Source: Nanobdellota archaeon
Lineage (GTDB): Archaea > Nanobdellota > Nanobdellia > Parvarchaeales > Parvarchaeaceae
DNA length: 64,000 nucleotides
Direction of reading: 5' to 3'
NCBI GenBank assembly: GCA_021794235.1
Contig: JAJYRE010000004.1
Span: forward strand, 10,920 to 74,919
The notes beneath the pieces were generated by a model. That model saw only the letters and a list, made by a program, of their open reading frames with translations. It made no database searches and had not been told where the DNA came from. Positions 5,529-64,000 of the stretch are shown here, piece after piece. Each line of letters opens with the position of its first letter. Within the stretch, counting starts at the first letter, position 1. Made by a program: the position numbers and the translations under genes.

Positions 5529-5574
5529 CCAACTTTCCTTAATAGTTTATATCTAATTTTTGCATATTGTTCTA

Positions 5575-14470: not shown

Positions 14471-14530
14471 AGTATTATCTAGACATCACATTATTTATTG
14501 ATTTAAATATACAAAATGTTCTAAAATTAA

Positions 14531-15187: not shown

Positions 15188-15239
15188 TTCCAGCAGGTCT
15201 TCAGTTTAAGATTAAATAATATAGTTTGATACTATCACT

Positions 15240-16433: not shown

Positions 16434-16539
16434 CCAGGCCTTTAATAGCCCTTAGGATTTCAAACTGTAAATGACCGCTTTTTATCCACAAAGACTATAA
16501 TAGTTTGATGACAACTATAACATCTATGCGAGGCATACT

Positions 16540-17388: not shown

Positions 17389-17690
17389 AAAAGGATAAGC
17401 TTGAGCGAATAATCTACACGACTCTTAAAGTAGGAGCCATAGCCAGTGGTATCCTTCTGACGACAGGTGTCATAATGGAGATATTTTTTACCGGATTCTC
17501 CTCAACGGCATACACCGTGATGACAATAGGGATATTCGTACTGTTCGCAACCCCTATAACAGGCGTCGGAACTTCTGTATTTGTGTTTGCGTTCGAACGC
17601 AATAAGCTCTACACTATCATAACTACAGTGGTATTCATAGACATAATGGTCGCAATCTTTATAGTGCCTAGGTTCCTCTATATAATCTAA
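17385..17690 (+). CDS. Small membrane protein, DUF1634-like partner of TauE
   Basis: 101 aa, 3 TM. 4-nt overlap with the TauE gene, which is the usual DUF81-DUF1634 pairing. Confidence 0.55.
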   Translation: MKKDKLERIIYTTLKVGAIASGILLTTGVIMEIFFTGFSSTAYTVMTIGIFVLFATPITGVGTSVFVFAFERNKLYTIITTVVFIDIMVAIFIVPRFLYII

Positions 17691-17725
17691 TCGCCTTTTT
17701 AATTGACAGAGCGCCATATTTTACT

Positions 17726-18528
17726 ATGGAAAGCATAGACGATTTGTTAAATCTAAAGGGAAAGACCGCTATTGTGACAGGCGGCGGAATAGGCATAGGC
17801 ATGGGAATATCCTACCGTCTTGCTGAGGCGGGTGCAAATGTAGTAATAGCCGCGAGGAAAGAGGAAGAAGGGACAAAAGCCGCGGAAGAACTTTCTAAGA
17901 AAGGATTCAGAGTCACCGCAATAAAGACGGATGTATCCGTAGAAGCAGATGTTAAAAATCTTATTAACAAGACAGTTGAGAAGTATGGATCTATAGATAT
18001 ACTCGTGAACAATGCAGGGATATACCCGTCAATACCTGTTATGAGCATGTCGAAAGAGCAGTTTGATGAGGTCTAGACATAAATCTGGACGGGGTTTTCC
18101 TGTGTACAAAATACGCGAGTGAGCAGATGATAAAGAGAGGAAATGGCGGCAAGATAATAAACATAACATCTATAGACGCACTTCATCCTTCATTCATAGG
18201 CCTTGCTCACTACGACGCTTCTAAGCACGGGATCTGGGGTTTTACAAAGAACGTCGCCCTTGAACTGGCGCCTCACAATATATGGGTGAATGCAATCGCA
18301 CCCGGCGGAATACTGACACCCGGCGTTGAGAAGCTGCAGCGGAGCATGACTCTTCCCGCGGGCGTGGACATGAAGACGATGCTAGACTCATTTATGACAA
18401 AGATCCCCATGAGTCGTCTTGGCGACCCGGACGACATAGGAAAAGTTGCTTTGTTCTTAGCGTCCGATATGTCTTCCTACATGACGGGTACCCAGATAGT
18501 CGTAGACGGAGGCGTTCTGCTGGGGTAA
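17726..18528 (+). pseudogene. Short-chain dehydrogenase/reductase (SDR) interrupted by a 1-nt frameshift near 18070-18073
   Basis: ORF 17726-18076 carries TGGGIGIG and NNAG. ORF 18127-18528 carries S..YDASKHG (YxxxK) and PGGILTP. Reading cta gac ata aat ctg gac... from 18073 restores ..DEV|LDINLDGVFLCTKYASEQMIKRG across the gap. Confidence 0.8.
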
Positions 18529-21422: not shown

Positions 21423-22018
21423 CGAGGTGACGAACCTGTTATGGTATCATGTGTTCCATTATAGGTAAAATTACCCGGTTTAGCGGTAAGTGTTATCGTG
21501 GGTGTAGCCTTATTTATTATCTGTTGTCTTACGATTGCACAGTTGCTTGAACCACCGCTAGAATTAGCCGTAACTATATACTTATTTGCGCTTCTAAGGA
21601 GAATGTTATTCAGCGTTGTGGAACCTGTGGGATTGGTACTAGTAGTGGATGTAGCCACCAATGTCCCATTAACATATAATCTGTATGTGAACGCAGGAGC
21701 GGCTGGACCCTTTCCACTAGTGGTCGCTGTGAAAACAGCAGTGTAGTTTGATGTCGTACCGTAGGTTATCGTAGAGTTAGTTGTCTGGCTATTCAGATAA
21801 AGTACAACAGTGCACGAGGAGGTCTCGGCGAAAGTTGCAATATTCCCAAATGCACCTTGATTCGGTTGATATCCGTTCGACGGCTGCTGTATCGCAACCC
21901 CTCCATACAGAATAATAGCCGTTATGGCCATCGAAATCGATATTATTGCAAGTAGAACAGCTATCTGAATCGTTCTCGACCTCGCATCGTCGCTTGAGTT
22001 AGGTCTCTTAGATCCCAT
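21419..22018 (-). CDS. N-terminal part of the same surface protein (signal/anchor helix plus first repeat)
   Basis: 199 aa. N-terminus ..DDARSRTIQIAVLLAIISISMAITAIIL. It ends inside a repeat unit (KATPTITLTAKPGNFTYNGTHDTITG...) that continues in the next ORF in another frame. Confidence 0.6.
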   Translation of the reverse strand: MGSKRPNSSDDARSRTIQIAVLLAIISISMAITAIILYGGVAIQQPSNGYQPNQGAFGNIATFAETSSCTVVLYLNSQTTNSTITYGTTSNYTAVFTATTSGKGPAAPAFTYRLYVNGTLVATSTTSTNPTGSTTLNNILLRSANKYIVTANSSGGSSNCAIVRQQIINKATPTITLTAKPGNFTYNGTHDTITGSSPR

Positions 22019-36988: not shown

Positions 36989-36994
36989 ATAATA

Positions 36995-37082
36995 TGGACC
37001 GGGAGGGATTTGAACCCTCAGTCTTCGCCATTTTCGAAAAAAAGCTTGCGAAAGCGACGTCATGCCGTTGGACCACCGGCCC
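36995..37082 (-). tRNA. tRNA-Ala(CGC) with a 16-nt intron in the anticodon loop
   Basis: Reverse complement is GGGCCGG-TG-GTCC-AACGGCA-TGAC-G-TCGCT-TTCGCA[AGCTTTTTTTCGAAAA]T-GGCGA-AGACT-GAGGG-TTCAAAT-CCCTC-CCGGTCC-A. The G3-U70 alanine identity pair is present. Confidence 0.85.
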
Positions 37083-37121
37083 ACGTATTCTATATAAAAG
37101 CGTCCAGAATAAATAGTTGAT

Positions 37122-42679: not shown

Positions 42680-43828
42680 ATGTTTGATTTTCTAAAGAAA
42701 AAGATAAAGGACTCTATAAACAAGATCCAGAAGAAACTCGAGAAAGAAGAGATAGAGGATGAACTGACTGCAGAGGAGAAGCAGGCGATCGTAGAGAATC
42801 CCCAGATTGTGCTTCGCGAGGAAAAAGAAGGGACGCCGACAGTGCAGGAAACGGAAACTGAAGAAAAGAAACCCGAACCAAGGGAAATAAAACCAAAGCA
42901 GCACCGCGCAAAAACACCGGAGCCGAAGGCGGAAGAAAAACACAAGGAGAAAGAGACAGGAAAGAAAACCACGAAGAGGCTGCTATCCCACAGGATAAAC
43001 GAGGCTGACATAGAGGGTATATACCAGGAAATAAAATCAGATCTTGTAGAAAACAACGTCGCACTTTCTGTTGTAGAATCGATACATGCGGACTTGAAGA
43101 AAAATCTGCTTGGTAAGGACGTGTCAATGCTCGCGATAAAGAAGGAGGTCGAGGAGGCCATAAAGAACAGCATAAGTGATATACTTTTGGAGTATCCAAT
43201 GGATGCTATGTTCGCGACCATCAAGACAGCAAAACCTTTCATAATACTCCTTGTGGGTGTTAATGGGGCAGGAAAGACAACGACCCTTGCAAAGCTCTCA
43301 CAGTTCTTTATAGGGAAAAAGTTCAGGGTAGTTGCCTCGGCGAGCGATACCTTCAGGGCAGCATCGATAGAGCAACTGCAGATACACATGGACAAGCTCG
43401 GAGTAGATCTTGTAAAACACACTTACGGGGCTGATCCGGCAGCCGTAGCATTCGATGCGATAAAACACGCCAAGAATGTGGCCGCTGACGTGGTTCTTAT
43501 AGATACGGCGGGAAGGAGCGACATAAACAAGAACCTCATAGAAGAGCTAAAGAAAGTCAAGAGAGTAAGCAAGCCCAACCTGACCATATTTGTAGGCGAC
43601 GCCCTTACCGGCAACGATGCGGTAAAGCAGGCAGAGATATTTGACAGGGAAGTAGGGATAGATGCTAGTATAATATCAAAAGCCGACGTAGATAAGAAGG
43701 GCGGGGCTGTACTTTCGATATCCTATGTCACGAAGAAACCAATCATGTTTTTGGGTACTGGACAGGACTACCCAGATCTTATACCTTTCAATAAAGAACG
43801 AACGGCTGAGTTTTTACTCAAGGATTAG
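42680..43828 (+). CDS. ftsY: Signal recognition particle receptor FtsY
   Basis: 382 aa. Charged N-terminal region, then the NG domain: LLVGVNGAGKTTTLAKL, DTFRAA, DTAGR, SKADVD.KGG. Confidence 0.9.
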   Translation: MFDFLKKKIKDSINKIQKKLEKEEIEDELTAEEKQAIVENPQIVLREEKEGTPTVQETETEEKKPEPREIKPKQHRAKTPEPKAEEKHKEKETGKKTTKRLLSHRINEADIEGIYQEIKSDLVENNVALSVVESIHADLKKNLLGKDVSMLAIKKEVEEAIKNSISDILLEYPMDAMFATIKTAKPFIILLVGVNGAGKTTTLAKLSQFFIGKKFRVVASASDTFRAASIEQLQIHMDKLGVDLVKHTYGADPAAVAFDAIKHAKNVAADVVLIDTAGRSDINKNLIEELKKVKRVSKPNLTIFVGDALTGNDAVKQAEIFDREVGIDASIISKADVDKKGGAVLSISYVTKKPIMFLGTGQDYPDLIPFNKERTAEFLLKD

Positions 43829-46796
43829 GATATAGGAATGCTATCGATGTAAGCGCACCGTTGTTACTGTTATTGCTATAGTCATATCCGTTCCCATCCA
43901 GAGGGAGCCACGCTATTAGCTTTTCAAGATGAACAGGTTCCGCTCCTATCCCTGCATTGTATAAGTGGTTTATATCTAGAAGTGAGAGTGCTGTATCATA
44001 CATCTGCACGTTCGCCGTCTGTCCGTTCATTTGGCTACTTCCAAGTTCAGTCGCAGGAGTAGCGTACGGTGCTGGCTGGTTGAGGGTATAGGTAGAGTTA
44101 CTGCACTTTAAATCTGCGCATGATGCTATCCAGGCATTTCCAGGCGAGTTGTACTTGAGGATACCAGTAACCAATACCCATTTGTTGTACGGGACGTAAA
44201 CGTTCGGTGTCACTCTATTGTTCGCGCCAGTGCCGCATGACTGATTCCATTCTACCAAGTTTATGAAGTAACCAGTGGAATTATCCGGAAATTGCTGTAA
44301 TCCCGAAGTACAGCCTTGATTCTCCTGGAGCAGGTCCCTGCAAGGGAAACCCCCATTGCAGTTTCCATACGCATGCTTTAAATTCACCCAAACACTTAGC
44401 GTGTAGCTGTCACCCCCATTCCATATCTTGGCCGTGCTGGCAGTACCCGGTACCGCAATATTGCTTGCATTCGTGAAGTTAGCTACAGAATACTGATATC
44501 CATAGCTGCTTACAGTCGATCCACCTGATACCTGCCCTATGTTTATAGACGGCATCACATCGTTTGGAGGATATGCCCTTACTCTCATCCATTGCACAGT
44601 CATAGTGTTGCTAGTGCTCGATGCATATACCCCAGTAGAGATAAATACAGAAGACGGGAGTGCAAGGTCTCCAGAGGAGGCATTAAAACTCAAATAATTT
44701 TTATAGTAATACTGTGCCGATGAAGACGTCCAAGTCTGTCCGTTCACCCCAGGTACAACTATCTGTAAGTTTATATTCTGTGTTCCACTCATCCCGCCAG
44801 ACATCGACCCTTCTCCTATACTTCCCGACCATTCATTAAAGTCGTATCCGTCCGAAGACGCGAGGTTACCATTCTGCTGCGCTATGCCGCCGCTCTCGGC
44901 CCCTCCAGATTGAGATGTTATATAAGCTTCGGATATTACAGGCGGAGTGTATCCCGTTCCCCATATTATACCTACGTTGTTGGCGCTGCCCGTGGAGAAA
45001 GTTATTCCGTTATTAACAGTTATCGACGCTCCGGACGGTACCTGTGTAGAGAATCCGAACGGCACGCTGCTCCCGGAGAAATTCCAATAGTTTATGAATA
45101 TCTTCCCCCCGTTGTCGTATTGTCCGTACGCTGGTGACAGCTGTGGAGCCTCTCCCACATTTATTCCGTTGAACAAGTTTATGGACGGGTCGGCAAATCC
45201 TATGTACGCATTTATAGTCGTGTTTGCGGGTATGCCATTACCCAGTTTCAGCCAATAAACTGCAGTCGAAGAGGACGTTCCCGACTCAAGCCATGAAGGT
45301 ATCACACTGCCGTTGGCATAGAAGAATTCAACGTTTTGCAGGTTCGAAGCTTCGTACATCTGGTATTTGGTTGCGTTTATGACAACCTGTTGCTGGAATG
45401 GTGCCGGTGTCGCAGTCGGCTGGTCATTTGTGATTGATATCGGTGCATAATATCCTATATATTGCGGCAGAGTCGGCGGGAGAAGCGCGCTGGGCATCAC
45501 GCCATTCGGAGGGTAGGCCGCTGTGGCCATCCAGTCCACGTAATCGTTCTCCTGCACGCTTAAGCTTGCTGTTGCCAGCCCAAAGTAGAGATTTCCCGTG
45601 CTTGGAATATAGTTTTGATAACTTATACTATTGGTTCCTGTAGTCGTCTGAATACTCCCTGTTACATCAGCAGCGCCGGGGACATATGCGAGCTGATAAG
45701 CGTCCCAGATTGGGCCACCGCCTTCTACTGTGCTGCTTCCTCCAAAGTTTCCGCTCTGGAGCCATGTTATCGACACAGTGGTTCCATTACCCTGCACATA
45801 GTTTATTCCCGCCGGTGAAGTTGACATGGAAGCCGCTCCGAGAGCTGCTATCGATCCCAGATAGGTACTACTTCCTATAGCCCCGGACAAAACAAGCATG
45901 GCCTGATTTGGCAGGTTAATATTCCTGGCGTAGTCAAATGCGCGTGCTCCTGTACCTGTACTGTGTATCGCCGTAGTGCTGCCGTAAGGACAGAAGCTAG
46001 TGTAACAGTTTATAGTAACTCTTGAAATCGAATAACCTGATTGGTTTAGGAAATCAGAAAGTGGATAAGCCGCGTTGAAATAGTTCTCAAATACATTCGC
46101 ACCGTTGTCGTATTTTCCGTAAACAGCAGATAGCTGTGGGGCCTCTCCCACTGTTACACCATTAAAGAGGTTTGTACTCTTGCCTGCAAATCCCATGTAT
46201 ATAGTTATAGATGAATGCGCGGGTATGCTCACGCCGAGCTTCAGCCAGTAAATAGACTTAGACGATGAGTTTCCTATCTCAAGCCATGAAGGTATCACAC
46301 TGCCGTTGGCATAGAAGAATTCAACGTTTTGCAGGTTCGAAGCTTCGTACTGCTGGTATCTTTTAGAATCTATCATTATTTTCTGCCGGTATGGATCCGC
46401 TGTAGCGACTGACTGCGTGTTTTGTAGAGTTATCGGAACGGTACTTATCTGCGTCAGAATGTTCTGCGTCTGTGGTGGCGTAGAATTAAGAACGTTTAGA
46501 TTATTCGCTATCGCGCTATAAGTAAAATTATAGTTAACCAGATAATTTTTAATCATATTGGTTATCGTAGAGTTTAAAACGTTAAAGTTTGAGGAATTTA
46601 CATTCAGTGAATTCAGCTGCGAATATAGACTTAGGATACTGGAATATCCGTTTCTCAGAACCGTGAAAGAAGTCGTAAGTGTCTGGCCGTTTTTGTTGCT
46701 GCTGAGATTGTAATACTCCACACTAAGCACCGCCAGAATGGTAATTATCAGCATAACCAGAAAGAACATCGTTATCAGCTGGCCTCTCGAGTTCAT
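43818..46796 (-). CDS. 992-aa surface protein: pilin-like signal, two DUF2341-like modules, LamG/ConA-like C-terminal region
   Basis: N-terminus MNSRG|QLITMFFLVMLIITILAVL (G-1/Q+1). The duplicated ~330-aa module contains YEASNLQNVEFFYANGSVIPSWLE..YWLKL...I.A......Y.GFA....NLFNG..VGEAPQLS..YG.YDNG, which resembles DUF2341 as I recall it. The C-terminal part resembles LamG-type lectin folds. Many sequons. Confidence 0.65.
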   Translation of the reverse strand: MNSRGQLITMFFLVMLIITILAVLSVEYYNLSSNKNGQTLTTSFTVLRNGYSSILSLYSQLNSLNVNSSNFNVLNSTITNMIKNYLVNYNFTYSAIANNLNVLNSTPPQTQNILTQISTVPITLQNTQSVATADPYRQKIMIDSKRYQQYEASNLQNVEFFYANGSVIPSWLEIGNSSSKSIYWLKLGVSIPAHSSITIYMGFAGKSTNLFNGVTVGEAPQLSAVYGKYDNGANVFENYFNAAYPLSDFLNQSGYSISRVTINCYTSFCPYGSTTAIHSTGTGARAFDYARNINLPNQAMLVLSGAIGSSTYLGSIAALGAASMSTSPAGINYVQGNGTTVSITWLQSGNFGGSSTVEGGGPIWDAYQLAYVPGAADVTGSIQTTTGTNSISYQNYIPSTGNLYFGLATASLSVQENDYVDWMATAAYPPNGVMPSALLPPTLPQYIGYYAPISITNDQPTATPAPFQQQVVINATKYQMYEASNLQNVEFFYANGSVIPSWLESGTSSSTAVYWLKLGNGIPANTTINAYIGFADPSINLFNGINVGEAPQLSPAYGQYDNGGKIFINYWNFSGSSVPFGFSTQVPSGASITVNNGITFSTGSANNVGIIWGTGYTPPVISEAYITSQSGGAESGGIAQQNGNLASSDGYDFNEWSGSIGEGSMSGGMSGTQNINLQIVVPGVNGQTWTSSSAQYYYKNYLSFNASSGDLALPSSVFISTGVYASSTSNTMTVQWMRVRAYPPNDVMPSINIGQVSGGSTVSSYGYQYSVANFTNASNIAVPGTASTAKIWNGGDSYTLSVWVNLKHAYGNCNGGFPCRDLLQENQGCTSGLQQFPDNSTGYFINLVEWNQSCGTGANNRVTPNVYVPYNKWVLVTGILKYNSPGNAWIASCADLKCSNSTYTLNQPAPYATPATELGSSQMNGQTANVQMYDTALSLLDINHLYNAGIGAEPVHLEKLIAWLPLDGNGYDYSNNSNNGALTSIAFLYPNP
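45285..45357. repeat. 73-nt perfect intragenic repeat, copy 1
   Basis: ctcaagccatgaaggtatcacactgccgttggcatagaagaattcaacgttttgcaggttcgaagcttcgtac is identical to 46278-46350. Confidence 0.95.
46278..46350. repeat. 73-nt perfect intragenic repeat, copy 2
   Basis: Identical to 45285-45357. Both copies encode YEASNLQNVEFFYANGSVIPSWLE on the minus strand. Confidence 0.95.
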
Positions 46797-55205: not shown

Positions 55206-56204
55206 ATGGGAGTAAAGCTGAATACTCTTGTAAAAGGGACGCCGTTACAGATGAAGGATCTAGGCGGCAGGACGATCGCCATAGACGCTTTCAACTGGAT
55301 ATTTCAGTTTCTAACGACGATAAGACTTGCCGACGGCTCCTACCTCACCGACAAGCAGGGGAGGATAACGACCCATCTGAACGGCCTTTTCTACAGGTCC
55401 CTGAGTCTTCTCACAAACAAGATAACTCCGGTATATGTATTCGACGGCAAAGCACCAAAATTCAAGAAGAAGACGCTGGAAGAGAGGCACAGGATCAAAT
55501 CAGAAGCCATGGAGCTGTCTAAGACTGCGAAGACCATTGAAGAAAAGACGATGTACCTTAGGAGAACGGCGGAGATAGACTCGTACATAATAGACTCATC
55601 CATAGAGCTCCTTAATCTGATGGGGATTAGGACGATAAAGGCACCGGCAGAGGGTGAGGCACAGGCTGCAAGACTGAATGCAAATGGTCTGGTCTACGCA
55701 GTCGCCTCCCAGGATTATGACACTATACTCTTCGGTGCAAACAGAATCGTAAGGAACCTCAACATAACTAACAGGAAGAAGGTAACAGGCAAAGGTATAT
55801 CGACTACGGTGAGTCCTGAACTGATAGAGGCGAAGAAATTTTTCTCAGAAACAGGACTTGACCGCGAGAAAGCAATACTGATAGCGATGATGGTAGGTAC
55901 GGACTACAACAAGGGTGTAATGGGGATAGGTCCGAAAAAAGCCCTGAAAATCGTAAAGGAAGAGACGAGGGAGCAGATACTATCCAAGTATGATTTTAGA
56001 ACAGAGAATGATGTGAATGAAGTATACAATTACTTCATATCACCGAACGTTGTGGACTACAAGGAGCTCTCGAATCAGCTTAATCTGGATAAAGAAAAAG
56101 TCTTAAGGTTTTTGTGTGACGAGCACGGTTTCGACAGGGAGAGGATGAGCCAGTCGCTTGAAAAGATAGATACCAAGAGTTCCTCGCTTTTGCAATATGG
56201 ATAA
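55206..56204 (+). CDS. fen: Flap endonuclease 1
   Basis: 332 aa. MGVKL..L........L.GRTIAIDAFNWIFQFL, VYVFDGKAP.FK, APAEGEAQAA, QDYDTILFG. Confidence 0.95.
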   Translation: MGVKLNTLVKGTPLQMKDLGGRTIAIDAFNWIFQFLTTIRLADGSYLTDKQGRITTHLNGLFYRSLSLLTNKITPVYVFDGKAPKFKKKTLEERHRIKSEAMELSKTAKTIEEKTMYLRRTAEIDSYIIDSSIELLNLMGIRTIKAPAEGEAQAARLNANGLVYAVASQDYDTILFGANRIVRNLNITNRKKVTGKGISTTVSPELIEAKKFFSETGLDREKAILIAMMVGTDYNKGVMGIGPKKALKIVKEETREQILSKYDFRTENDVNEVYNYFISPNVVDYKELSNQLNLDKEKVLRFLCDEHGFDRERMSQSLEKIDTKSSSLLQYG

Positions 56205-56469
56205 CATCGAAGAGCGTTTTTTGGGCGAGAAAAAGCTAATGGACAATGTCTTCGCCTCCCTTATCAAGAAATCTGAGGATAAACAAGCTGTCGAATTCTT
56301 TGACATGTCCTTTAATTATTACAAAGATGCTCAGTTTTTCTATGAAAAGGGAGATTTTGTAAGGGCCTATGAAGGCATAGTAATAAGCTGGAGCTATATA
56401 GACGCTGGACTTAAAGTGGGGTTTTTCGGGCTTCCAAACGACCTTTTGCCATACTTTACTCTTGAGTAG
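56197..56469 (+). CDS. DUF357-like small protein
   Basis: 90 aa. ..YYKDAQFFYEKGDFVRAYEGIVISWSYIDAGLKVGFF matches my recollection of the DUF357 core. 8-nt overlap with fen. Confidence 0.55.
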   Translation: MDNIEERFLGEKKLMDNVFASLIKKSEDKQAVEFFDMSFNYYKDAQFFYEKGDFVRAYEGIVISWSYIDAGLKVGFFGLPNDLLPYFTLE

Positions 56470-56505
56470 AAATATTTATATACTTTAAGGTAATAAATAT
56501 CTAAT

Positions 56506-57714
56506 ATGGCAGACAATAGGGAGAAAATACCTGCAGTCGTTATATTGATGATAATGCTGATAAGTTCGGTGGTCATCTATATATTACTGGTACCTCCGCC
56601 CGTCGCCTATAAGCTCCTGGGGATAAACAATACTACTACCTCGCCCGGTTTTACCGTCCCCGCCGGAGCTTTTTTCAAGAACATTAGCACGTACATAGGA
56701 GGATATCCCAATCCGCAGCTGCAGAACTACCCTATAGGAACATTCGGGGTTTCGTACACGCAGAAAAACTACACTGTCTTCAGCAAAAAATCACTGGCCG
56801 TATCATCTTCATTATTCGGTTCGTCCTCTTACAACCTGTTCTTCAACAATACGCCCTCCGATACGTACTATCTTCTGATGAACGTCGGATCCGTTTCCGG
56901 ATCTCCAAAACTCGCGGTATCGGTTAACGGCAGCCAGATATACAGCGTTCTACCGACAACCAATGAGAGCATAGCAATAAAGCTTCCGTCAGTAGACAGC
57001 GAAAAGGCACTGTTATCGGTGACTAATTACCTAAACGGATTTGCGTTTTCACAGTCATTCACACTCGACAACGTTAAACTCGTAAAGCAGATTGGAAACA
57101 GCTCAAATATGACGAGCGCTGTCAAAGTTATGACATTCAGCGGAATAGGAGACTACTATCTTAATTATACACCCCTCGGATCCGGTAATATGAGCGTTTA
57201 CATAAACGGAATCGAGGTGTCCAGCATAAGCGGCACCAACACAAAAACAACCAGCGTAACCATCCCGCCTAGTGTGATAGCGAGTGCGGTGCGCGCTGCC
57301 GGTTCGTCTCAGGATTCCACAGTGCTTCCACTGACTTTCAACGTCAGTTTCGAACCTGGAAAGCAGGCCTCCTATGAGATAGCAAACGCGGGAGTATCAT
57401 ACCAAATACCGAGCATAGCAGGCAACAAAATATCATTATATTACAATGTAAGTTCAACCGCCAGCAACTATGCGATGGTCCTAGATGTTGCTAGTATAAT
57501 CAACAGCGGAAATCTTACCATCACTATAAACCCCTCTGGTTTTTCGACCGAGATACCCGCCGACAAATTGGCAGTGGGTCAGAACGCAGTAATCCTATCG
57601 CCTTCGGATCTGGGTGGAAACAGTCAGAATGGAGCATTTACGGGAACCGTGACGCTATCGTCAAACGGGCTTATAATTCCAGAATCAATAACCATCAAGC
57701 CAGTCAGCTCTTAG
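56506..57714 (+). CDS. Surface cluster protein 1: N-terminal anchor helix plus three internal repeats, sequon-rich
   Basis: 402 aa. N-terminus MADNREKIPAVVILMIMLISSVVIYILLV. Three modules recur around YYLLMNVGSVSGSPKLAVSVNG / YYLNYTPLGSGNMSVYINGI / YAMVLDVASIINSGNLTITIN. Many N-x-S/T sequons. Confidence 0.5.
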   Translation: MADNREKIPAVVILMIMLISSVVIYILLVPPPVAYKLLGINNTTTSPGFTVPAGAFFKNISTYIGGYPNPQLQNYPIGTFGVSYTQKNYTVFSKKSLAVSSSLFGSSSYNLFFNNTPSDTYYLLMNVGSVSGSPKLAVSVNGSQIYSVLPTTNESIAIKLPSVDSEKALLSVTNYLNGFAFSQSFTLDNVKLVKQIGNSSNMTSAVKVMTFSGIGDYYLNYTPLGSGNMSVYINGIEVSSISGTNTKTTSVTIPPSVIASAVRAAGSSQDSTVLPLTFNVSFEPGKQASYEIANAGVSYQIPSIAGNKISLYYNVSSTASNYAMVLDVASIINSGNLTITINPSGFSTEIPADKLAVGQNAVILSPSDLGGNSQNGAFTGTVTLSSNGLIIPESITIKPVSS

Positions 57715-57752
57715 CTATAATGTATATAAGTCGGGCTAAATTATAATCAAAT

Positions 57753-59273
57753 ATGAGCGATTCAAACGGTGGAAATCAGGGCCCTCAGCAGCAACCATCG
57801 GGCCAGATTAAGCCGACTTCTAAAGATAGATTGGGGAAGCTCTTCAATAAACGCGGCAAATATGTATGTCCTACGTGCGGCCAGGCTTTCAAAAAGAAAT
57901 CAGATCTCCTTGACCACAGACTGACAGTTCACGGAACTGACAAATCTGCGGCAGCTCTCCTATACATGAACAAAGGTTATCTAAAAAAGCATCCAGAGCT
58001 TAACCCCGCCTACAATGGCAGCAACTTCATGATGGAGCAGCAGTACAAGAAAATGATGAAAAGAAGGCTGTTTGATCCGGACAAAACAGTGTACACAGCA
58101 AAGAAATACTCAGTGGTAATTGCTGCGTTAGCCATTATAATAATACCAATACTGATATACTGGTTTGTTTATGGGCAGAACAGCGCTTCTGCACAGTACT
58201 TTAATACTTACTATGGTGCGTCCTTTAAACCAGTAACGGGGTTAATATCATCCATAGAGAACTCTCTTCTTACGGGTATAGAGGTGATACAGAACCCCTA
58301 CAATATAGGGGGGACCGCGCCACCACCAACGATAAACACCACACAAACATTCAAGCAATTCCTTGTTTTGACTGCAGTACCCAATCAGGTTATAACCATG
58401 ACCAATAACCCGCAGTTGTCAACGATTTTATATTCAATAAAGGACAATGCTAACGTGCCGCTCGGTTCCGGAACCCCTAACAACGTGCTGGTATCACTTT
58501 CATGCGGCAGCACGGTTTCGCAGCAGTCTGCCAAAGTGTGCCAGGATATGCTATCGAACTTTACTTCACCAGTACATGCTTCATCACCTCCTGTCATAAC
58601 AAATTTGCCCCTGATAAGCGAGATACTTCCCAGTGAGACTATAGACAACTCCACCTCGTTCTATCTCAACTGTCCGTTAGCAAAGACAACTTTCCCTACG
58701 GGTGCGACCGTGTTGGGCAACTTTACAATTAAAAATTATACCGCTGCTACAATTCTGCCAATCGAATTTGTATCGTACAACTTTAACCAGAAACTGCTAC
58801 AGGCTTCGCAACCGGTGCTTCCTTCGGTTCCCTCGGTGAACTTCGTCACACCCGGTCCGATACAGGTGGAGCTCAGTGTGCCCGTTCAGCAACCAATTTC
58901 GACCCAGGTAGAATCCGTACCGATAAACGTAAAGATAAATGATATAGGGACAGGTTCGCCGAACATATCCACTCTTGTTCTTTTCGTAAGCAAACAGTTC
59001 TATCCAAGCAACCCAACGAATGGGCAGTGGACGTGCACCAACTCATTCCCATTTAACAGGGGGGGATTCCAGTTCCCAGGAAGCGGCTATTGGGCGTGTA
59101 CTCTACCGGCTTCTCAGCTAAAGGGTACAACCTCATTCATATTTTCTCTGCCGCATGTGGCCACGCTCGGCGGGCTGCACTTCAATACTATGTCGGTGAT
59201 AGCAGGAGTGGTTTACAATTATAACGAACTGTTGAATATACCATTCATAATCGATAACGAGACCTGTACGTGA
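57753..59273 (+). CDS. Surface cluster protein 2: cytoplasmic C2H2 zinc finger, single TM, large sequon-rich ectodomain
   Basis: 506 aa. Residues 37-60 are YVCPTCGQAFKKKSDLLDHRLTVH (C-x2-C-x12-H-x4-H with the conserved F and L). The TM is VVIAALAIIIIPILIYWFVY at about residues 120-140, preceded by KKMMKRR..KK. The rest is Ser/Thr/Pro/Asn rich. Confidence 0.6.
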   Translation: MSDSNGGNQGPQQQPSGQIKPTSKDRLGKLFNKRGKYVCPTCGQAFKKKSDLLDHRLTVHGTDKSAAALLYMNKGYLKKHPELNPAYNGSNFMMEQQYKKMMKRRLFDPDKTVYTAKKYSVVIAALAIIIIPILIYWFVYGQNSASAQYFNTYYGASFKPVTGLISSIENSLLTGIEVIQNPYNIGGTAPPPTINTTQTFKQFLVLTAVPNQVITMTNNPQLSTILYSIKDNANVPLGSGTPNNVLVSLSCGSTVSQQSAKVCQDMLSNFTSPVHASSPPVITNLPLISEILPSETIDNSTSFYLNCPLAKTTFPTGATVLGNFTIKNYTAATILPIEFVSYNFNQKLLQASQPVLPSVPSVNFVTPGPIQVELSVPVQQPISTQVESVPINVKINDIGTGSPNISTLVLFVSKQFYPSNPTNGQWTCTNSFPFNRGGFQFPGSGYWACTLPASQLKGTTSFIFSLPHVATLGGLHFNTMSVIAGVVYNYNELLNIPFIIDNETCT

Positions 59274-59278
59274 TTTAT

Positions 59279-60211
59279 ATGAACATGAAAAACTTTAACA
59301 ATAAAGGAGCTGGCACATTCTCCGTCCTGGTGATAATAGGATTTATAGTAGTGATATTCTTCATGTGGCCATCTATAGGTCCATACTTAGGGATAACTCC
59401 TATCAAAACTACTACAGTTCCTCCTACAGAGGGGGTTGTTGCAAGCGGTATAACATATCCGTCCAGCATTACGCCCCAGTCAACATTCGGCGTAAGTTTC
59501 CTGCTTCAGAACAATCTCAATGGAAAGGTAGCTTCGGATATACACTTATGTCTGGATAATATGGGGTTGTTTACACTATCCAGCGGAAATAGGTGCCTTA
59601 CAGTGCCTTCACTTTTCGCAGGAGGCGTGCTGTCAGAATCGTACACACTCAATTCTCCCCCCGTGTCGGCTTATGGGAACATACCCTATGTGCAGACTCT
59701 GGGATATTACATAAACTTCTCATACGCATCCAGTTCTGTGCAGAGCCTCCAGTTTGTATCATCAAACCCTTCGGGAACCATCCCCTTCCCGCAGACAAAT
59801 TCCTTTGATACTACAGCAGGGCCCCTGAGTATAACCAGTTCCGCGCAGCAGCCGGTAGTCTACGGGCAGGACGCACAGCTTAATCTGAACCTGAAGAACG
59901 TAGGAAACGGCATAGTCATTGGACTTGTGAACATAGTCATCTCCATGAACAGCTCGCTGATAAATATGACATCTGCAAGCAACTATGGATTCGTTCCGAC
60001 AACCTACGCCAACGGCACAGTGGCGTTCAGCGCTTCTAGGTATCTCGGTCAGACCGGTCTTTCTCTGATTCTACCTGTAGTGCTTAATTCAAAAGAAGAG
60101 TCAAAGCTTTCCACATCAGGCGTACCGTACATAACATCCAACATAAACTTCCACATATCATACGCCTACGAAGAGGACGGGTTTTTCGACATAAAGCTGC
60201 TTACGCAGTAA
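59279..60211 (+). CDS. Surface cluster protein 3: pilin-like signal plus two beta-rich domains
   Basis: About 310 aa. N-terminus MNMKNFNNKG|AGTFSVLVIIGFIVVIFF. Contains ..AQLNLNLKNVGNG.., reminiscent of CARDB/Ig-like strands. The track ORF starts at a GTG at 59270, overlapping the previous stop. Confidence 0.5.
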   Translation: MNMKNFNNKGAGTFSVLVIIGFIVVIFFMWPSIGPYLGITPIKTTTVPPTEGVVASGITYPSSITPQSTFGVSFLLQNNLNGKVASDIHLCLDNMGLFTLSSGNRCLTVPSLFAGGVLSESYTLNSPPVSAYGNIPYVQTLGYYINFSYASSSVQSLQFVSSNPSGTIPFPQTNSFDTTAGPLSITSSAQQPVVYGQDAQLNLNLKNVGNGIVIGLVNIVISMNSSLINMTSASNYGFVPTTYANGTVAFSASRYLGQTGLSLILPVVLNSKEESKLSTSGVPYITSNINFHISYAYEEDGFFDIKLLTQ

Positions 60212-60252
60212 CTTGTCGAAGATTTATATAGAAACCACTCATTATCAATTAT

Positions 60253-61191
60253 ATGACTTATTTTGGTAGCAGAGGCGCCAACAACACCACGATATTCGGT
60301 GTGATAGCGATCCTGGTAATCATTGTAGTAGTCTATACTATGAATTCGGGAGCACTGAATCTTTTCGGACCTTCCGGGCTCAGTGCCAATACATTCAGCG
60401 TCTCGTCAAATTTGTCTTCCAGCAGCATACTTCAGGGGTATTCAGGCCAGCTTTTCTTCAGTTTCTTAAATCCGTACAATGAATCCATAGACGCCAGAAT
60501 CAACCTTACCACCGTAGATTCAAGTTTCATAAACATACCAGACCCTTCAAGAGCTGTCCTGATGCCCTCCGCAATGAAGTCTTCATCCTCCATCGTCTTT
60601 AATGTGTCCTGCATCGGCAGCGGTCAGTCATCGTATGCTCTGTCGGCTGAAATCCCAAACTTTTGGCAGAACCTGACAACCTCGGTAGTTACGTACCCGT
60701 ATAGGACCAGCTCATCACAGGTTCCGAAGGAGGTTTACAACAATCCCAATGCTGGATTCCTTAAAGTATCAGCGCAGCCTCTTTTGATAGAGACGCAGAC
60801 TTCCACAGTGCCACTTCAGCAGTCCATGAATATTGTGTTTTCTTCGACTACTTTCAATGGCTATCAGAGCGGACCATACACTGCAATATCTTTAGGATCT
60901 CCAAATAACTACATAAGCGAAATTCTGGTGTCAATAGACAACTCCTCTTCAGGAGGGATAAAGTCTGCTTTTGTTTATTACAACGGGAACTCATATCCTC
61001 TTACCCAAGTGTCCCCTGGCATTCTAGGCGCTGAATTGAAGGATGCGTACGTTCCGCTGATAGAGCCTTCCATACCTATAATAATAACCGCTGTAAATTC
61101 ACAGACGGCTTCACAGGAAATAGTAAATATAGCCATTAAATACAATTACTATTTCTCATATACAGGTCCTTCGGAGATAGTGTGTCAGTAA
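60253..61191 (+). CDS. Surface cluster protein 4: pilin-like signal plus two beta-rich domains
   Basis: 312 aa. N-terminus MTYFGSRG|ANNTTIFGVIAILVIIVVV. Size and motif layout parallel protein 3. Confidence 0.5.
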   Translation: MTYFGSRGANNTTIFGVIAILVIIVVVYTMNSGALNLFGPSGLSANTFSVSSNLSSSSILQGYSGQLFFSFLNPYNESIDARINLTTVDSSFINIPDPSRAVLMPSAMKSSSSIVFNVSCIGSGQSSYALSAEIPNFWQNLTTSVVTYPYRTSSSQVPKEVYNNPNAGFLKVSAQPLLIETQTSTVPLQQSMNIVFSSTTFNGYQSGPYTAISLGSPNNYISEILVSIDNSSSGGIKSAFVYYNGNSYPLTQVSPGILGAELKDAYVPLIEPSIPIIITAVNSQTASQEIVNIAIKYNYYFSYTGPSEIVCQ

Positions 61192-61192
61192 T

Positions 61193-62065
61193 ATGGTAAG
61201 AGCACAGACTGGAATCGCGTTTTTGGTGTTGATAGTGGTCCTCGTGGCTGTATCTTTGTACTTATACCAGGGAGGATATCTAAGCGGATTATTTCCAGCG
61301 ACCCACGTACCGCACCAGAACTCTTACGTTCCGCTGACCGTCAATGTGACATCTCCACACGATCTGTCATCCCTTTATCCCAACCAGCAATTTCAGGTTA
61401 TATCAACCATTTCGAACAGCAGAAATACTCCAATGACAGCAACTATAGTTCCTTTCGGCTGCTCTTTTCTGCCTACTACTCAAAGAACTGTAACAATACC
61501 ACAAAACTCTCCATCTTCCATACAGTGGACATTTTCAAGCAGCAGCGCAACAAGCTGCGCAATAACGTTCAAAGTCTGTTTTAACGATACCGCATACACA
61601 GATTACCCTGTAACATTTGTGAATTACCAGTTTACCGGCACTCCGCCGACTTCGCCGCCAACCTCATCATCAGGAGTACCTATATCAATATACTTACAGG
61701 GATTGAATTCCACAATAACCGCACCGCCATCCACAGTGAATTCAACGGTATATGTCAATTCGCTTCAGCTATCCAGCTTCGGAATCGCTACCGGTTTGAA
61801 GTGGGTCAACATCAAAATAGAAAACGACCAGGGTTATTTTACCCTCTATAGCAATCAGATATCCAGAACAAGCAGTATAAATCTTAGTGCCAACAGATAC
61901 GAACTCGCTTTCCAGAACGGTAACCTCCTGTCACCTTTCCCATTCCTTCTAGCTATACCACCGGTGACAAACCCGCAGGGTTATACTTCCAATGTAGCGA
62001 TTAATGTCAGCACCGCGTATACGTACTGCGTGTCTTCAAACAGTCTGCCAGTCGGCATAAAGTAA
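61193..62065 (+). CDS. Surface cluster protein 5: pilin-like signal plus two beta-rich domains
   Basis: 290 aa. N-terminus MVRA|QTGIAFLVLIVVLVAVSLYLY. Starts 1 nt after the previous stop. Confidence 0.5.
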   Translation: MVRAQTGIAFLVLIVVLVAVSLYLYQGGYLSGLFPATHVPHQNSYVPLTVNVTSPHDLSSLYPNQQFQVISTISNSRNTPMTATIVPFGCSFLPTTQRTVTIPQNSPSSIQWTFSSSSATSCAITFKVCFNDTAYTDYPVTFVNYQFTGTPPTSPPTSSSGVPISIYLQGLNSTITAPPSTVNSTVYVNSLQLSSFGIATGLKWVNIKIENDQGYFTLYSNQISRTSSINLSANRYELAFQNGNLLSPFPFLLAIPPVTNPQGYTSNVAINVSTAYTYCVSSNSLPVGIK

Positions 62066-62815
62066 TCAGCTGTTTTTTCCGAACAGCGTATCAATAGCCC
62101 CGGATTCGTAATCACTTACTTCACCGGGTATAATCAGGCATACAGGGGGATTATGGACCTCATTTCCGGCCTTTTCTACAAAATTTATTACTTGATCCTC
62201 TCCGCCTAGTCTGGACGCAAAAAGAGTTTTTTCCCAGTTTATCACGCTTTGACCCCTCTTCCTCTCTATCCCTTTTAGTATATCCACAGCAGCCTGCACC
62301 CCTAGAAAGTTCTTTTCATCCCTTGCTTCCAGTAACACAAGTGTATGCATCCCGTTTTCCGTATTCTGTTTTATGGCATCGAAGAAGCTCTCCGGCCTGT
62401 AATTTTCAGAATATATCGGCATACTTGTCGTGCGTCCGAATTTGTATATCGAAAATCCGGTTTCTCCTATCGCTGAAAATATGCTTGAAGCGTGTATAAT
62501 CCTATAATCTATGCCCCTTACGACGGCTTCTGTTACCAGAGACATATGCGTCGTAGCCGCCAAAGGGTCTCCCGGTACGAGCAGACACACCGTTTTATTC
62601 TGCGAGGCTGCTACAAGCGCGTCATTCTCCACACCTTCTCTTCCCAGAATAGTTATTCTCTTTCCGGTGATTTCTTCCAGCCAATTCAACTGCGTGATAT
62701 CATTCGGATTTGTGTACCTCTCCAGATAGACTTCATCAGCTTTTTTTATGATTTCTACGGCTCTGAACGGCAAATCATTTAAATAATACAAGCCAGTACC
62801 AATTAGATATAACAT
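62066..62815 (-). CDS. dphB: Diphthine synthase
   Basis: 249 aa. MLYLIGTGLYYLNDLPFRAVEIIKKADEVYLERYT... and ..LVPGDPLAATTH. Confidence 0.9.
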   Translation of the reverse strand: MLYLIGTGLYYLNDLPFRAVEIIKKADEVYLERYTNPNDITQLNWLEEITGKRITILGREGVENDALVAASQNKTVCLLVPGDPLAATTHMSLVTEAVVRGIDYRIIHASSIFSAIGETGFSIYKFGRTTSMPIYSENYRPESFFDAIKQNTENGMHTLVLLEARDEKNFLGVQAAVDILKGIERKRGQSVINWEKTLFASRLGGEDQVINFVEKAGNEVHNPPVCLIIPGEVSDYESGAIDTLFGKNS

Positions 62816-62818
62816 ATT

Positions 62819-63658
62819 ATGGTATACTCAATCGACTATATTATATTTATTTTCGCCCTTCTTGTTCTTGGGCTGTCATCGGCGTTCGATATAAAGAGCA
62901 GGGAGGTTCCGCAATTTCTGCTTTACATCCTGATATTCGGGTCGGTCCTGCTTTGCGTGTTCAAGTTTATATTTACCGGCTCTCTGTCATCCATAGAATA
63001 CCTTCCTGTCTCGCTCGCACTGCTCTTCGGGTTCTCATATCTCATGTACATATCCGGCCAGTGGGCGGGAGGTGACGTGCAGATCATGCTAGGTCTGAGT
63101 TTTCTTTTCACTTCCGCAAATATCAGTTCTAACATGTCATTCGTGTCTCTTTTCATAAACATAATGATAGCCGGCGGCGTATACGGTCTTTTCGGCACGC
63201 TAATCATGGGTATAATAAAGTACAAAAGACTGAAAAAGTACCTAAAGTTTTATGATGTGCCGATTGTGGTTTTAGGCGCTATAGCGATCGCATCCTCCTT
63301 CATCCTGCTACCGCTACCTCTGAATCTATTCATACCTGCCATACTTTTCCTTCTGGTCTCCATGCGTTACATGTACTTGATTTCAACCACTGTGGTATTC
63401 GTAAAGACTCCATCGGCAAAGCTGGAGGAAGGTGATTGGATAGCGGAGGAGATACGAGATCATGAGGGGAAGCTAGTAGTAAGACCAAAGGCTACGGGGC
63501 TGTCTAAAAGGGACATAGAGAAGATTAAATCGAATAACATCAGGGAAGTGTTGGTGAAGATAGGCCTTCCGTTTATACCAGGAATATTTTTGGGAGTCCT
63601 TATAACAGTCCTTCTCGGGAATCCTCTTTTGTCTATATTTCTAAGTAGTCTGCCCTAA
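62819..63658 (+). CDS. A24-family prepilin/preflagellin peptidase (PibD/FlaK-like) with an archaeal C-terminal domain
   Basis: 279 aa, polytopic. First catalytic Asp context SSAFDIKSREVP (D24), second in GQWAGGDVQIMLG (GxGD-like). C-terminal soluble insert plus a final TM, as in FlaK-type enzymes. Confidence 0.75.
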   Translation: MVYSIDYIIFIFALLVLGLSSAFDIKSREVPQFLLYILIFGSVLLCVFKFIFTGSLSSIEYLPVSLALLFGFSYLMYISGQWAGGDVQIMLGLSFLFTSANISSNMSFVSLFINIMIAGGVYGLFGTLIMGIIKYKRLKKYLKFYDVPIVVLGAIAIASSFILLPLPLNLFIPAILFLLVSMRYMYLISTTVVFVKTPSAKLEEGDWIAEEIRDHEGKLVVRPKATGLSKRDIEKIKSNNIREVLVKIGLPFIPGIFLGVLITVLLGNPLLSIFLSSLP

Positions 63659-64000
63659 GATTCTTCAAAGAGTGACTCATCTCTTTCAAGTTCATAATCT
63701 TCATCAGGGTCTTCGTTTATCTCATCCTTTAGTGAAAACTCTTTTCTACGCATATACTATTTACTATATAGTAATAGATATCCTTTTAAATATTTAAACG
63801 CTTCTCTGGGCGTCTATAGCTTATATATGAACCACGCCATGTGCCAGTTATAAAAAGGCCGTGAACTTCCACCAACGACATAAATATATCGGTATAAGTC
63901 TAAAAATCCCATCACTCAGTTTACTGTCGGATTAGGCAAATAATCCTGGATAAAATAATCTTTACCATGCACTTTACCCGATAAAGAACCAAAATCCTCC

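Follow-up and report, generated by a model that had tools for sequence, protein, structure and literature searches.

Several described systems resemble the locus presented here. The euryarchaeal minor pilins of arCOG02911 are Ig-like proteins of 250-550 aa (Makarova, Koonin & Albers 2016, PMC4858521); their N-terminus is of class III type, their body is all-beta and Ig-like, they tend to duplicate, and their ATPase/TadC module is often encoded elsewhere. The Epd pilins of Methanococcus maripaludis (EpdA-E) are N-glycosylated, are described as small, are encoded by clustered genes and carry Glu at +5; they are cut at KGQ/RAQ sites, with Gln at +1, by the 9-TM peptidase EppA, and FlaK is also present in this species. 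In the Sulfolobus bindosome, class III sugar-binding glycoproteins that are not classical pilus subunits are processed by one broad-range peptidase, PibD. Finally, bacterial minor-pilin operons (fimU-pilVWXY1E; T2SS GspH-I-J-K) include 3-5 different pilin-like genes each, some of which lack Glu5.

The DNA studied here comes from a tiny, acid-mine archaeon of the Parvarchaeota, ARMAN-type DPANN. The Parvarchaeota (ARMAN-4/5) are uncultivated, ultra-small archaea, apparently dependent on Thermoplasmatales hosts, with which physical connections have been seen. To our knowledge, no envelope or host-contact protein has been described in them.

We analysed a stretch of 64 kb (hereafter, the window), in which five neighbouring genes, P1 to P5, are followed by dphB and by an A24 prepilin peptidase gene. 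P3-P5 share with the arCOG02911 proteins the type of N-terminus, the all-beta body and the tendency to duplicate, and here too the ATPase/TadC module is probably encoded elsewhere; this likeness is by description and concerns size, fold type and signal only. Unlike in arCOG02911, the pilin-like genes are fixed in a set with two non-pilin membrane proteins. As for the Epd pilins, the genes are clustered and the products are predicted to be N-glycosylated, and Gln at +1 is found in P5 and in a giant protein encoded downstream; however, P3-P5 have no Glu at +5, are of ~300 aa with two domains, and the peptidase is of the ~6-TM FlaK/PibD type. The use of one broad-range peptidase is what we propose for this locus as well, and a class III-like protein is also encoded next to an ABC transporter in the window, but P1-P5 have neither a solute-binding fold nor a transporter partner and there are no Bas-like genes. 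As in the bacterial minor-pilin operons, several different pilin-like genes stand together, and a very large adhesin gene adjoins the block in most Parvarchaeota genomes; here, though, there is no homology, the setting is an archaeal single membrane and the adhesin itself bears a pilin signal.

Layout and conservation of the block

The five genes lie on the plus strand at 56506..57714 (P1, 402 aa), 57753..59273 (P2, 506 aa), 59279..60211 (P3, 310 aa), 60253..61191 (P4, 312 aa) and 61193..62065 (P5, 290 aa), spaced by 38, 5, 41 and 1 nt (the second spacer becomes a 4-nt overlap if a GTG start is used). P1 is a surface protein anchored by an N-terminus of uncleaved type, P2 is a bitopic membrane protein, and P3-P5 are pilin-like. 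A TATA-like box (TTTATATA, 56475..56482, plus strand), located 31 nt 5' of the P1 start codon, is on sequence grounds the likely promoter of the five-gene block, and a second one (60223..60230, plus strand), 30 nt 5' of the P4 start, is a possible internal promoter for P4-P5. A comparable box 20-45 nt before the start is present in 14 of the 71 genes of the window.

An earlier note on this DNA had described five packed same-strand ORFs as a block of pilin-signal proteins. Coordinates and lengths match exactly, and so do the N-terminal sequences quoted for P3-P5, but the signal holds for these three proteins only: on inspection of the N-termini, the cleavage motif is absent from P2 and from P1, whose N-terminus (RERIPAVV...) has no G/A site, a point that the note had overlooked.

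The order P1-P2-P3-P4-P5 is kept in 14/14 loci of related GTDB species and in two further lineages, one of which lacks P4 while keeping the remaining order; the genes are thus syntenic across relatives and not scattered, as the note had asked of them. Here, a giant class III protein of 1436 aa begins just beyond the window, and two lineages have no such very large adhesin nearby. No small major pilin was found near the block. The 34 homologues found for P1 all belong to Parvarchaeota (34/34, including ARMAN-5 BJBARM5_0095), and P1 has no match in Pfam, NCBIfam or PDB. An exhaustive HMMER profile search with the P4 family returned ~18 clusters of ~300-aa proteins and nothing else, the named homologues being Parvarchaeota without exception. 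P1-P5 are best explained as a Parvarchaeales-specific cell-surface module.

In P2, the ~110 aa at the N-terminus are cytoplasmic; after a TM helix (~aa 118-140) comes an ectodomain of ~365 aa, in which six Cys are invariant and whose portion aa 261-412 weakly resembles P3 (hhalign 54%, E 1e-4). Its N-terminal region carries a C2H2 zinc finger (57861..57932, plus strand; aa 37-60; C39, C42, H55 and H60), which matches Pfam PF00096 with E 3.5e-5, and the P2 profile matches PDB zinc fingers with E 4.8e-9. The C, C and H residues of the finger are kept in 14/15 orthologues, and the finger is missing in the divergent lineages L018 and L020. This domain had also been overlooked by the note, which recognised no characterised family in any of the five proteins. 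The pilin N-terminal models of Pfam and NCBIfam (Pilin_N, Class_IIIsignal, archaeal flagellin/pilin) gave no match to P1-P5 at E <= 1 and none at E <= 0.1 when 70 proteins from the families of P1, P3, P4, P5 and the giant protein were searched, and S-layer family models gave no match to P1-P5.

Processing sites and folds of P3-P5

The putative cleavage sites are KG↓A after aa 10 in P3, RG↓A after aa 8 in P4 and RA↓Q after aa 4 in P5. Motif residues were counted on 15-17 orthologues per protein, at ~40% identity. In P3, position -2 is K/R and position -1 is G throughout (15/15 sequences); in P5, -2 is K/R and +1 is Q in 15/15, with G, A or S at -1; in P4, -1 is always G and +1 always A (15/15), G8 and A9 being invariant across 17 sequences, but -2 is K/R in only 5/15. 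The class III leader (basic -2, Gly/Ala -1) is therefore that of P3 and P5, and P4 has the -1 Gly. Divergent lineages also keep the cleavage residues, examples being KKG↓Q, KKA↓A and KA↓Q, and in all three proteins ~20 hydrophobic residues follow the site directly according to the hydropathy scan, forming an N-terminal helix in the AlphaFold models of P3 and P4. The P5 sites, KGQ/RAQ, correspond to those that FlaFind predicts in the Epd pilins of Methanococcus, which have been studied by experiment (PMC4371748 Table 1). Around the site, leader residues vary while the site residues stay fixed, a pattern not easily accounted for unless the processing site is under selection. P3-P5 are therefore probably substrates of the peptidase.

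Conversely, P3-P5 are all rejected by our own approximation of the FlaFind pattern, [KRDE][GA][ALIFQMVED][ILMVTAS]x3, because of small or polar residues (G/N/T) at +2 to +4. Thus, the class III pattern claimed for P3-P5 holds for the conserved residues, but neither this expression nor the curated HMMs recognise it, and the -2 position of P4 is mostly non-basic. It could be argued that the three N-termini are ordinary signal anchors in which [KR][GA] is incidental, that A24 cleavage does not occur and that the adjacency of the peptidase is inherited synteny only. The lack of any pilin family match, the failure of the FlaFind-like pattern and the frequent absence of the basic residue in P4 favour this reading, as does the behaviour of the peptidase gene in other lineages, described below. 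The invariant -1 Gly of P3 and P4, +1 Gln of P5 and -2 K/R of P3 and P5, maintained over ~15 orthologues and the divergent lineages, speak against it, and we consider it improbable.

The two beta-sandwich domains following an N-terminal helix, expected by the earlier note, are what AlphaFold modelled for both P3 (pLDDT 77.2, helix 9-37) and P4 (pLDDT 78.6, helix 11-31). P4 also has two invariant Cys, C120 and C311. In Foldseek searches with P3 and P4, no pilin or archaellin was among the top matches, and P3 gave generic Ig-like/MG-domain matches only. The kinship supposed among the three proteins is uneven. P4 and P5 are clearly paralogues from their profile alignment (hhalign 96.2%, E 2e-9, 261 columns), and P3 appears to be a weaker relative of them (69-77%); BLASTP gave no match in any pair among P1-P5.

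Peptidase, assembly machinery and fate of the processed proteins

The peptidase (62819..63658, plus strand; 279 aa, ~6 TM) scores 31.6 bits with PF01478 (cutoff 26.5). Its D24 and D86, the latter in GGD (equivalent to GxGD), do not vary among 14 orthologues, and their motifs align to those of FlaK (3S0X), so that score and invariance agree with an A24 peptidase having both Asp motifs. It is presumably the processing enzyme of P3-P5 and of other class III proteins; a single flaK is present in nearly every Parvarchaeales genome (PMC10134863 Table S6). Between the block and the peptidase lies, as previously reported, dphB (diphthine synthase; 62066..62815, minus strand; TIGR00522, E 4.5e-60), a housekeeping gene outside the system that forms an old pair with the peptidase gene. 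The dph5-flaK pair occurs without the block in Jingweiarchaeales, the sister order, and lies 8 kb away from the block in the Parvarchaeota lineage L020. The pair is older than the block, the adjacency of the peptidase is partly inherited synteny and, since the pair occurs without the block and is displaced in L020, this adjacency is weak evidence.

No T2SSE-type ATPase and no T2SSF/TadC-type platform is encoded in the window. A Walker A survey (ABC ATPase and FtsY only) and the assignment of each polytopic membrane protein to some other family agree on this, and ATPase and platform genes are also absent from all the ~7-21-kb related loci. Such an absence is not unusual, because archaea frequently encode their pilin sets in trans (PMC4858521). 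The suggestion that the assembly genes lie elsewhere agrees with the annotation of the lineage: one VirB11-family ATPase (arCOG01818) is listed in all Parvarchaeales genomes and TadC (arCOG01812) together with FlhG in most, and the only PilA-type pilin is a single arCOG02420 match (PMC10134863 Table S6). A lineage having the ATPase, FlaK and mostly TadC but almost no known pilin plausibly obtains its pilins from this block, and P3-P5 are plausible candidates for the unrecognised pilins of Parvarchaeales. The block and the neighbouring giant class III adhesin thus provide named candidates where surveys show machinery but almost no pilins.

Our leading proposal, advanced tentatively and at a little less than an even chance, is that P3-P5 are processed and then taken into a pilus-like structure by machinery acting in trans. 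P3-P5 would be made as prepilin-type precursors and inserted into the membrane by the Sec system; the adjacent FlaK/PibD-type peptidase would cut off the short basic leaders on the cytoplasmic side, at the three sites given above, and the ectodomains, with two Ig-like domains each, would be N-glycosylated. The mature proteins would begin with the ~20-residue hydrophobic helix and could be taken up by the only type-IV-pilus-like machinery of the lineage (VirB11-family ATPase, TadC and FlhG), to be assembled into a pilus, or into a short pilus-like stalk or tip complex, contacting other cells. The uncleaved P1 and P2 would remain in the membrane as complex partners, with P2 extending into the cytoplasm via its zinc-finger domain. 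That P3-P5 end up in a filament, as opposed to remaining anchored, we consider slightly less likely than not. The absence of Glu at +5 in P3-P5 counts against the proposal, as do the convergent dphB, which separates the peptidase from the block and precludes co-transcription, and the modelled helix of P3 and P4, which is short (21-29 aa) and is not packed against the globular domain, the ~10-17 residues behind it being a linker modelled with low confidence.

Several of these observations suit a different arrangement, in which P1-P5 form a glycoprotein hetero-oligomer held in the cytoplasmic membrane by the N-terminal helices and filling the ~30-nm space of the ARMAN envelope; trimming of P3-P5 by the peptidase, by analogy with the Sulfolobus bindosome, might or might not take place. 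All five proteins share one ~20-residue N-terminal helix design with an invariant Tyr at its end and, as the helix is common to the uncleaved P1 and P2, a membrane complex fits as well as a filament does. The flexible linker behind the helix, the lack of both Glu at +5 and a small major pilin, the preservation of the five genes as a set and the membrane-spanning P2 with its cytoplasmic domain point in the same direction, together with the class III-like protein beside the ABC transporter. Furthermore, archaeal class III signals also serve non-filament proteins (PMC4371748), and cryo-ET of ARMAN cells revealed 5-8 nm densities near the inner membrane linked into the cytoplasm (PMC4110969). Against an anchored complex, the lineage retains ATPase, TadC and FlhG without other known pilin substrates, and the N-terminal likeness of P3-P5 is typical of pilins of a single system. 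We regard the anchored complex as a substantial possibility, to which we would nonetheless give well under an even chance. If P3-P5 do not polymerise, they would be a further case of archaeal prepilin processing for non-filament surface proteins.

Returning to the pilus-like structure, its boldest version is a new Parvarchaeales-only, type IV pilin-derived apparatus of five proteins: three processed subunits and two uncleaved paralogue-like anchors, with P2 joining a pilin-like ectodomain to the cytoplasm through its C2H2 finger. The "orphan" ATPase/TadC would then serve this apparatus alone, and the contacts with Thermoplasmatales cells seen by cryo-ET would be made through it. Taken as a whole, we find this scenario unlikely.

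Glycosylation and the cell envelope

P1-P5 contain about 26-33% S+T+N and just 5-11% K+R+D+E. They have 1.3-3.5 sequons per 100 aa, the median of the window being 0.61, and this density bears out the sequon-dense bodies reported for them, but sequons exceed the expectation from composition only in P1 (14 observed vs 7.3 expected), which is predicted to be the most glycosylation-prone of the five. Sequon positions kept in at least 80% of orthologues are 4-9 per protein, 9 of them in P1, and this conservation implies extracellular glycosylated domains.

The same Ser/Thr/Asn-rich, low-charge, glycosylation-prone ectodomains would be in line with a lattice-forming cell wall, that is, an S-layer or sheath made of the five proteins, and no protein has been identified for the ARMAN outer layer. 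This reading appears very improbable to us: no S-layer domain was detected in P1-P5, five different subunits of ~300-500 aa would be unusual in a lattice, and a far better candidate is encoded in the same window, at 18537-21422. The proposal that the block is a substrate module is partly supported, through the class III-like P3-P5 and the conserved gene order. The protein encoded at 18537-21422 is of 961 aa and has 59 sequons, a match to the PGF-pre-PGF domain and a C-terminal TM.

Layout and conservation of the surface-protein block

As a whole, the block described in the earlier note is real and well conserved. The ORF calls gave exactly the five ORFs it had claimed, in coordinates and strand: P1 (56506-57714, 402 aa), P2 (57753-59273, 506 aa), P3 (59279-60211, 310 aa, with a GTG at 59270 as alternative start), P4 (60253-61191, 312 aa), and P5 (61193-62065, 290 aa), all on the forward strand and separated by 38, 5, 41, and 1 nt. 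They are followed by the diphthine synthase gene dphB (62066-62815, reverse strand; TIGR00522, E 4.5e-60), convergent to the block, and by the gene of an A24 prepilin peptidase (62819-63658, forward strand), divergent from dphB. TATA-like boxes precede both P1 (31 nt upstream) and P4 (30 nt upstream), thus the block may comprise two transcription units instead of a single operon. The peptidase gene cannot be co-transcribed with the block. The divergent start codons of dphB and the peptidase gene are 3 nt apart (62815-62819), so the promoter of each must sit within the other gene. Within 56001-64000, the GC skew changes from about +0.15 to between about -0.03 and -0.17 from the start of the block, with genes still on the forward strand; this flip is likely due to the Ser/Thr/Pro-rich and Gly/Asp/Glu-poor composition of the proteins.

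Conservation of the five-gene order and the peptidase among relatives, the check proposed in the earlier note, was observed in 14/14 GTDB species-representative genomes, as far as the contigs reach, with exceptions in divergent lineages. The common order is PolB, MetAP, FEN1, DUF357, P1-P5, dphB (reverse strand), peptidase, and a giant protein of ~1170-1760 aa where complete, followed, where the contig reaches, by a ~300-aa transmembrane (TM) protein. The nearest related species carries, inserted between P1 and P2, a 914-aa paralogue of this giant protein ('DAQSAVEYLISWGW'; L004 3853-6597), so the block tolerates the insertion of an adhesin gene. The giant protein is missing from one divergent lineage (728-kb contig), which retains P1-P5-dphB-peptidase; another has P1-P2-P3-P5, with P4 missing and the dphB-peptidase pair placed 8 kb upstream and inverted. 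The stable core of the block is P1-P2-P3-(P4)-P5. Gene order alone is weak functional evidence, because housekeeping genes are equally syntenic in this narrow clade.

None of the five families is annotated, and every homologue with a name comes from the Parvarchaeota lineage. Indeed, the homologue clusters (17 for P4, seven for P3, and 34 for P1) contain, where named, only Candidatus Parvarchaeota/Parvarchaeum, and ARMAN-5 BJBARM5_0095 is among the P1 homologues. With the P4 profile, an exhaustive HMMER search across 1.84 billion representative proteins retrieved 18 true family members, mostly of ~300-324 aa, and no relatives beyond this ~300-aa family; two marginal matches, both giant repeat proteins, were discarded as unrelated. 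The ARMAN locus tags were not found mentioned in the papers searched. Images of the ARMAN envelope and of the contacts with hosts exist (PMC4110969), with no genes assigned to them, and the block gives named candidate surface or attachment proteins for ARMAN-type archaea.

Signals, folds, and relationships of P1-P5

The earlier note had assigned class III signals to the last three ORFs, and we evaluated them among orthologues at ~40% identity, 15 per protein (17 in a larger P4 alignment). The key residues of archaeal class III processing are those at -2, -1, and +1 (PMC3387779). In P3, K/R at -2 and G at -1 were found in 15/15 sequences, as were K/R (-2), G/A/S (-1), and Q (+1) in P5. In P4, position -1 is G and +1 is A in all 15 sequences (and in all 17 of the larger alignment), but only five of the 15 have K/R at -2. 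Divergent lineages show the same site pattern (KKG↓Q, KKG↓V, KKA↓A, and KA↓Q, the arrow marking the cleavage site), and the sites given for the Methanococcus Epd pilins are KGQ and RAQ (PMC4371748 Table 1). A FlaFind-like regex, which may differ from the real FlaFind rule, rejects P3, P4, and P5 because their residues +2 to +4 are G/N/S/T, and pilin N-terminal models matched neither P1-P5 (Pfam, NCBIfam) nor 70 family members (Pfam). The claimed signals are backed by the conserved site residues but not by this regex or the pilin models, and we consider it probable that P3-P5 are prepilin-type substrates. The G/A site is absent from P1 ('RERIPAVV') and P2, and all five families have a common helix design, with basic residues, 19-21 hydrophobic residues, and a conserved Tyr at the end. 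We discarded an SPase I site downstream of the helix, because the P4 candidate 'SGA↓L' is not conserved.

P2 is bitopic: its N-terminal ~110 aa are cytoplasmic, a single TM helix comes next, and the ectodomain contains six invariant Cys. A C2H2 zinc finger (Pfam, E 3.5e-5; family profile against PDB zinc fingers, E 4.8e-9) lies in the cytoplasmic part; its ligands are conserved in 14/15 orthologues, and it is replaced in divergent lineages by a charged, probably helical segment. Most P2 orthologues (L005-L016) open with the class III leader-like 'M.L..N[KR]KGQA' (57753-57800), in which N5 and Q9 are invariant; here, 'N[KR]KGQ' precedes a Pro-rich spacer and the zinc finger, not a helix, the TM helix coming ~100 residues on. 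The statement that no characterised family is recognisable in the five proteins holds for P1 and P3-P5 and has to be amended for P2: searches for pilin, S-layer, or other families (Pfam and NCBIfam on the five, Pfam on 70 members) returned only its C2H2 finger and noise. The profiles of P1, P3, P4, and P5 had no match among PDB sequences.

AlphaFold, run with the family alignments, gave one confident model of five (the best) for each of P3 and P4. The P4 model consists of a helix (11-31) and two beta-sandwich domains (pLDDT 78.6); in the P3 model (pLDDT 77.2), the helix spans 9-37 and the two beta-sandwich domains have their strands in the same order. Both models have a low-confidence linker after the helix. 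Foldseek against PDB returned, for both models, no pilin or archaellin and generic tandem Ig-like, MG-domain, and integrin-type matches at TM ~0.2, with an identical top match. The proposed two-beta-sandwich design is hence predicted for P3 and P4, but did not lead to a known pilin or archaellin fold. As regards paralogy, all-against-all BLASTP found no match among P1-P5, and the P4-P5 relationship is visible only by profile-profile comparison (hhalign, 96.2%, E 2e-9, 261 columns). The other pairs scored lower: 77% for P5-P3 (E 2e-5, 150 columns), 69% for P4-P3 (E 4e-5, N-terminus only), and 54% for the P2 ectodomain and P3 (E 1e-4, 142 columns). By these hhalign scores, the notion of three diverged paralogues is right for P4/P5 and only plausible for P3 (69-77%).

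Ser, Thr, and Asn make up 26-33% of P1-P5, and charged residues are scarce. The proteins had been described as dense in N-x-S/T sequons: their density is indeed 2-6 times the window median, but it exceeds the composition-based expectation only in P1. More telling than density, the sequon positions retained by 80% or more of the orthologues number nine in P1, five each in P2, P3, and P4, and four in P5, which argues for real N-glycosylation of the extracellular domains.

Peptidase, assembly machinery, and candidate pilins

The FlaK/PibD-type A24 peptidase (279 aa; Pfam PF01478, 31.6 bits, cutoff 26.5) has both catalytic Asp contexts previously noted: D24 ('D-x-x-x-R-E-V-P') and D86 ('GGD', corresponding to GxGD) do not vary among 14 orthologues and align with the motifs of FlaK (PDB 3S0X). 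Its adjacency to the block, with only dphB between, carries less weight. In MAGs of the sister order Jingweiarchaeales, dph5 adjoins flaK among quite different neighbours (PMC10134863 supplement), and in one Parvarchaeota lineage the dphB-peptidase pair moved as a unit; the pair is therefore older than the block. Its place next to P5 gives, at best, weak support for a functional connection.

No assembly ATPase or platform gene is present in the 64 kb, as the earlier note had stated: Walker A motifs occur only in an ABC ATPase and FtsY, and the polytopic membrane proteins are all of other families. We found no T2SSE-like Walker A in the related loci, neither an ATPase nor a platform gene in the regions flanking 18 related loci, and no small Glu5-type major pilin in the window or related loci. 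Table S6 of PMC10134863 (Rao et al. 2023), covering 44 genomes including ARMAN-4 and ARMAN-5, gives each genome a single VirB11-family ATPase (arCOG01818) and most Parvarchaeum genomes a TadC (arCOG01812), with FlhG present in most and FlaK in nearly all; PilA-type pilins (arCOG02420, arCOG03871) are at zero in Parvarchaeales, but for one arCOG02420 match. According to Makarova et al. 2016 (PMC4858521), archaeal pilin sets are often encoded apart from the ATPase/TadC module, nanoarchaeal genomes yielded no cognate pilins, and minor pilins of 250-550 aa with an Ig-like body are common. For these reasons, the absence of a local ATPase is normal, and the block can reasonably be proposed to supply the missing pilins, with the ATPase and TadC of the lineage taken from the published table. 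The block is a lineage-specific form of a known system type, not a novel type. That P3-P5 polymerise is a serious possibility, which we hold tentatively.

Other surface proteins and features in and beside the window

The giant protein of this genome (1436 aa) starts 65 nt past the window end (L001, the locus including the sequence beyond the window, 13813-18123; about window position 64065). Its class III signal is canonical (K-G↓Q-x-x-x-E; Gln +1 and Glu +5 invariant in 14/14), and it has a 'TYGW' motif; its DUF2341 match (E 1.2e-4) reaches 22.9 bits, just under the Pfam cutoff of 23.4. The gene lies next to the peptidase in 13/16 lineages (12 GTDB loci and this genome); two lack it, and the contigs of two more loci end too early to show it. 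A ~300-aa TM protein follows. A 992-aa protein (43818-46796, reverse strand; 'MNSRG↓QLITMFFLV'), with a significant DUF2341 match (E 1e-7), is a second large adhesin-type pilin-like protein and the sole window ORF passing the FlaFind-like regex.

Furthermore, a 272-aa protein (3557-4375) has the class III-like start 'MNRKG↓ISAFLGIII' and, with a sequon-rich 383-aa protein (4377-5528) bearing an N-terminal anchor, lies immediately upstream of an ABC permease (5560-7107) and ATPase (7109-7855), which recalls the solute-binding proteins with class III signals of Sulfolobus. Prepilin-type signals are widely used in Sulfolobus and Haloferax, and the same seems true of this organism. Such use would suit a broad-range peptidase and leaves room for the alternative of anchored glycoproteins: P3-P5 could stay anchored and, with P1 and P2, form a complex in the envelope, a reading that we regard as slightly less likely than polymerisation. 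The P1-P5 HMMs matched none of the giant, 992-, 961-, 272-, and 383-aa proteins, nor the ~300-aa protein after the giant gene.

The 961-aa protein (18537-21422, reverse strand) is likely an S-layer-type glycoprotein: it has a PGF-pre-PGF match (TIGR04213, 31.1 bits, cutoff 28), a C-terminal TM helix, and 59 N-x-S/T sequons (6.1/100 aa), a density surpassed by only one protein in the window and by no other large one. It is devoid of an N-terminal signal, and its start is overlapped by 4 nt by the end of a 199-aa ORF with an N-terminal TM (21419-22018, reverse strand); the two are possibly one gene, split or read in two pieces. Lastly, ARAGORN reported a 90-nt tRNA at 36994-37083 (reverse strand) with the anticodon undetermined ('cg'); this archaeal tRNA possibly contains an intron or is atypical in some other way.
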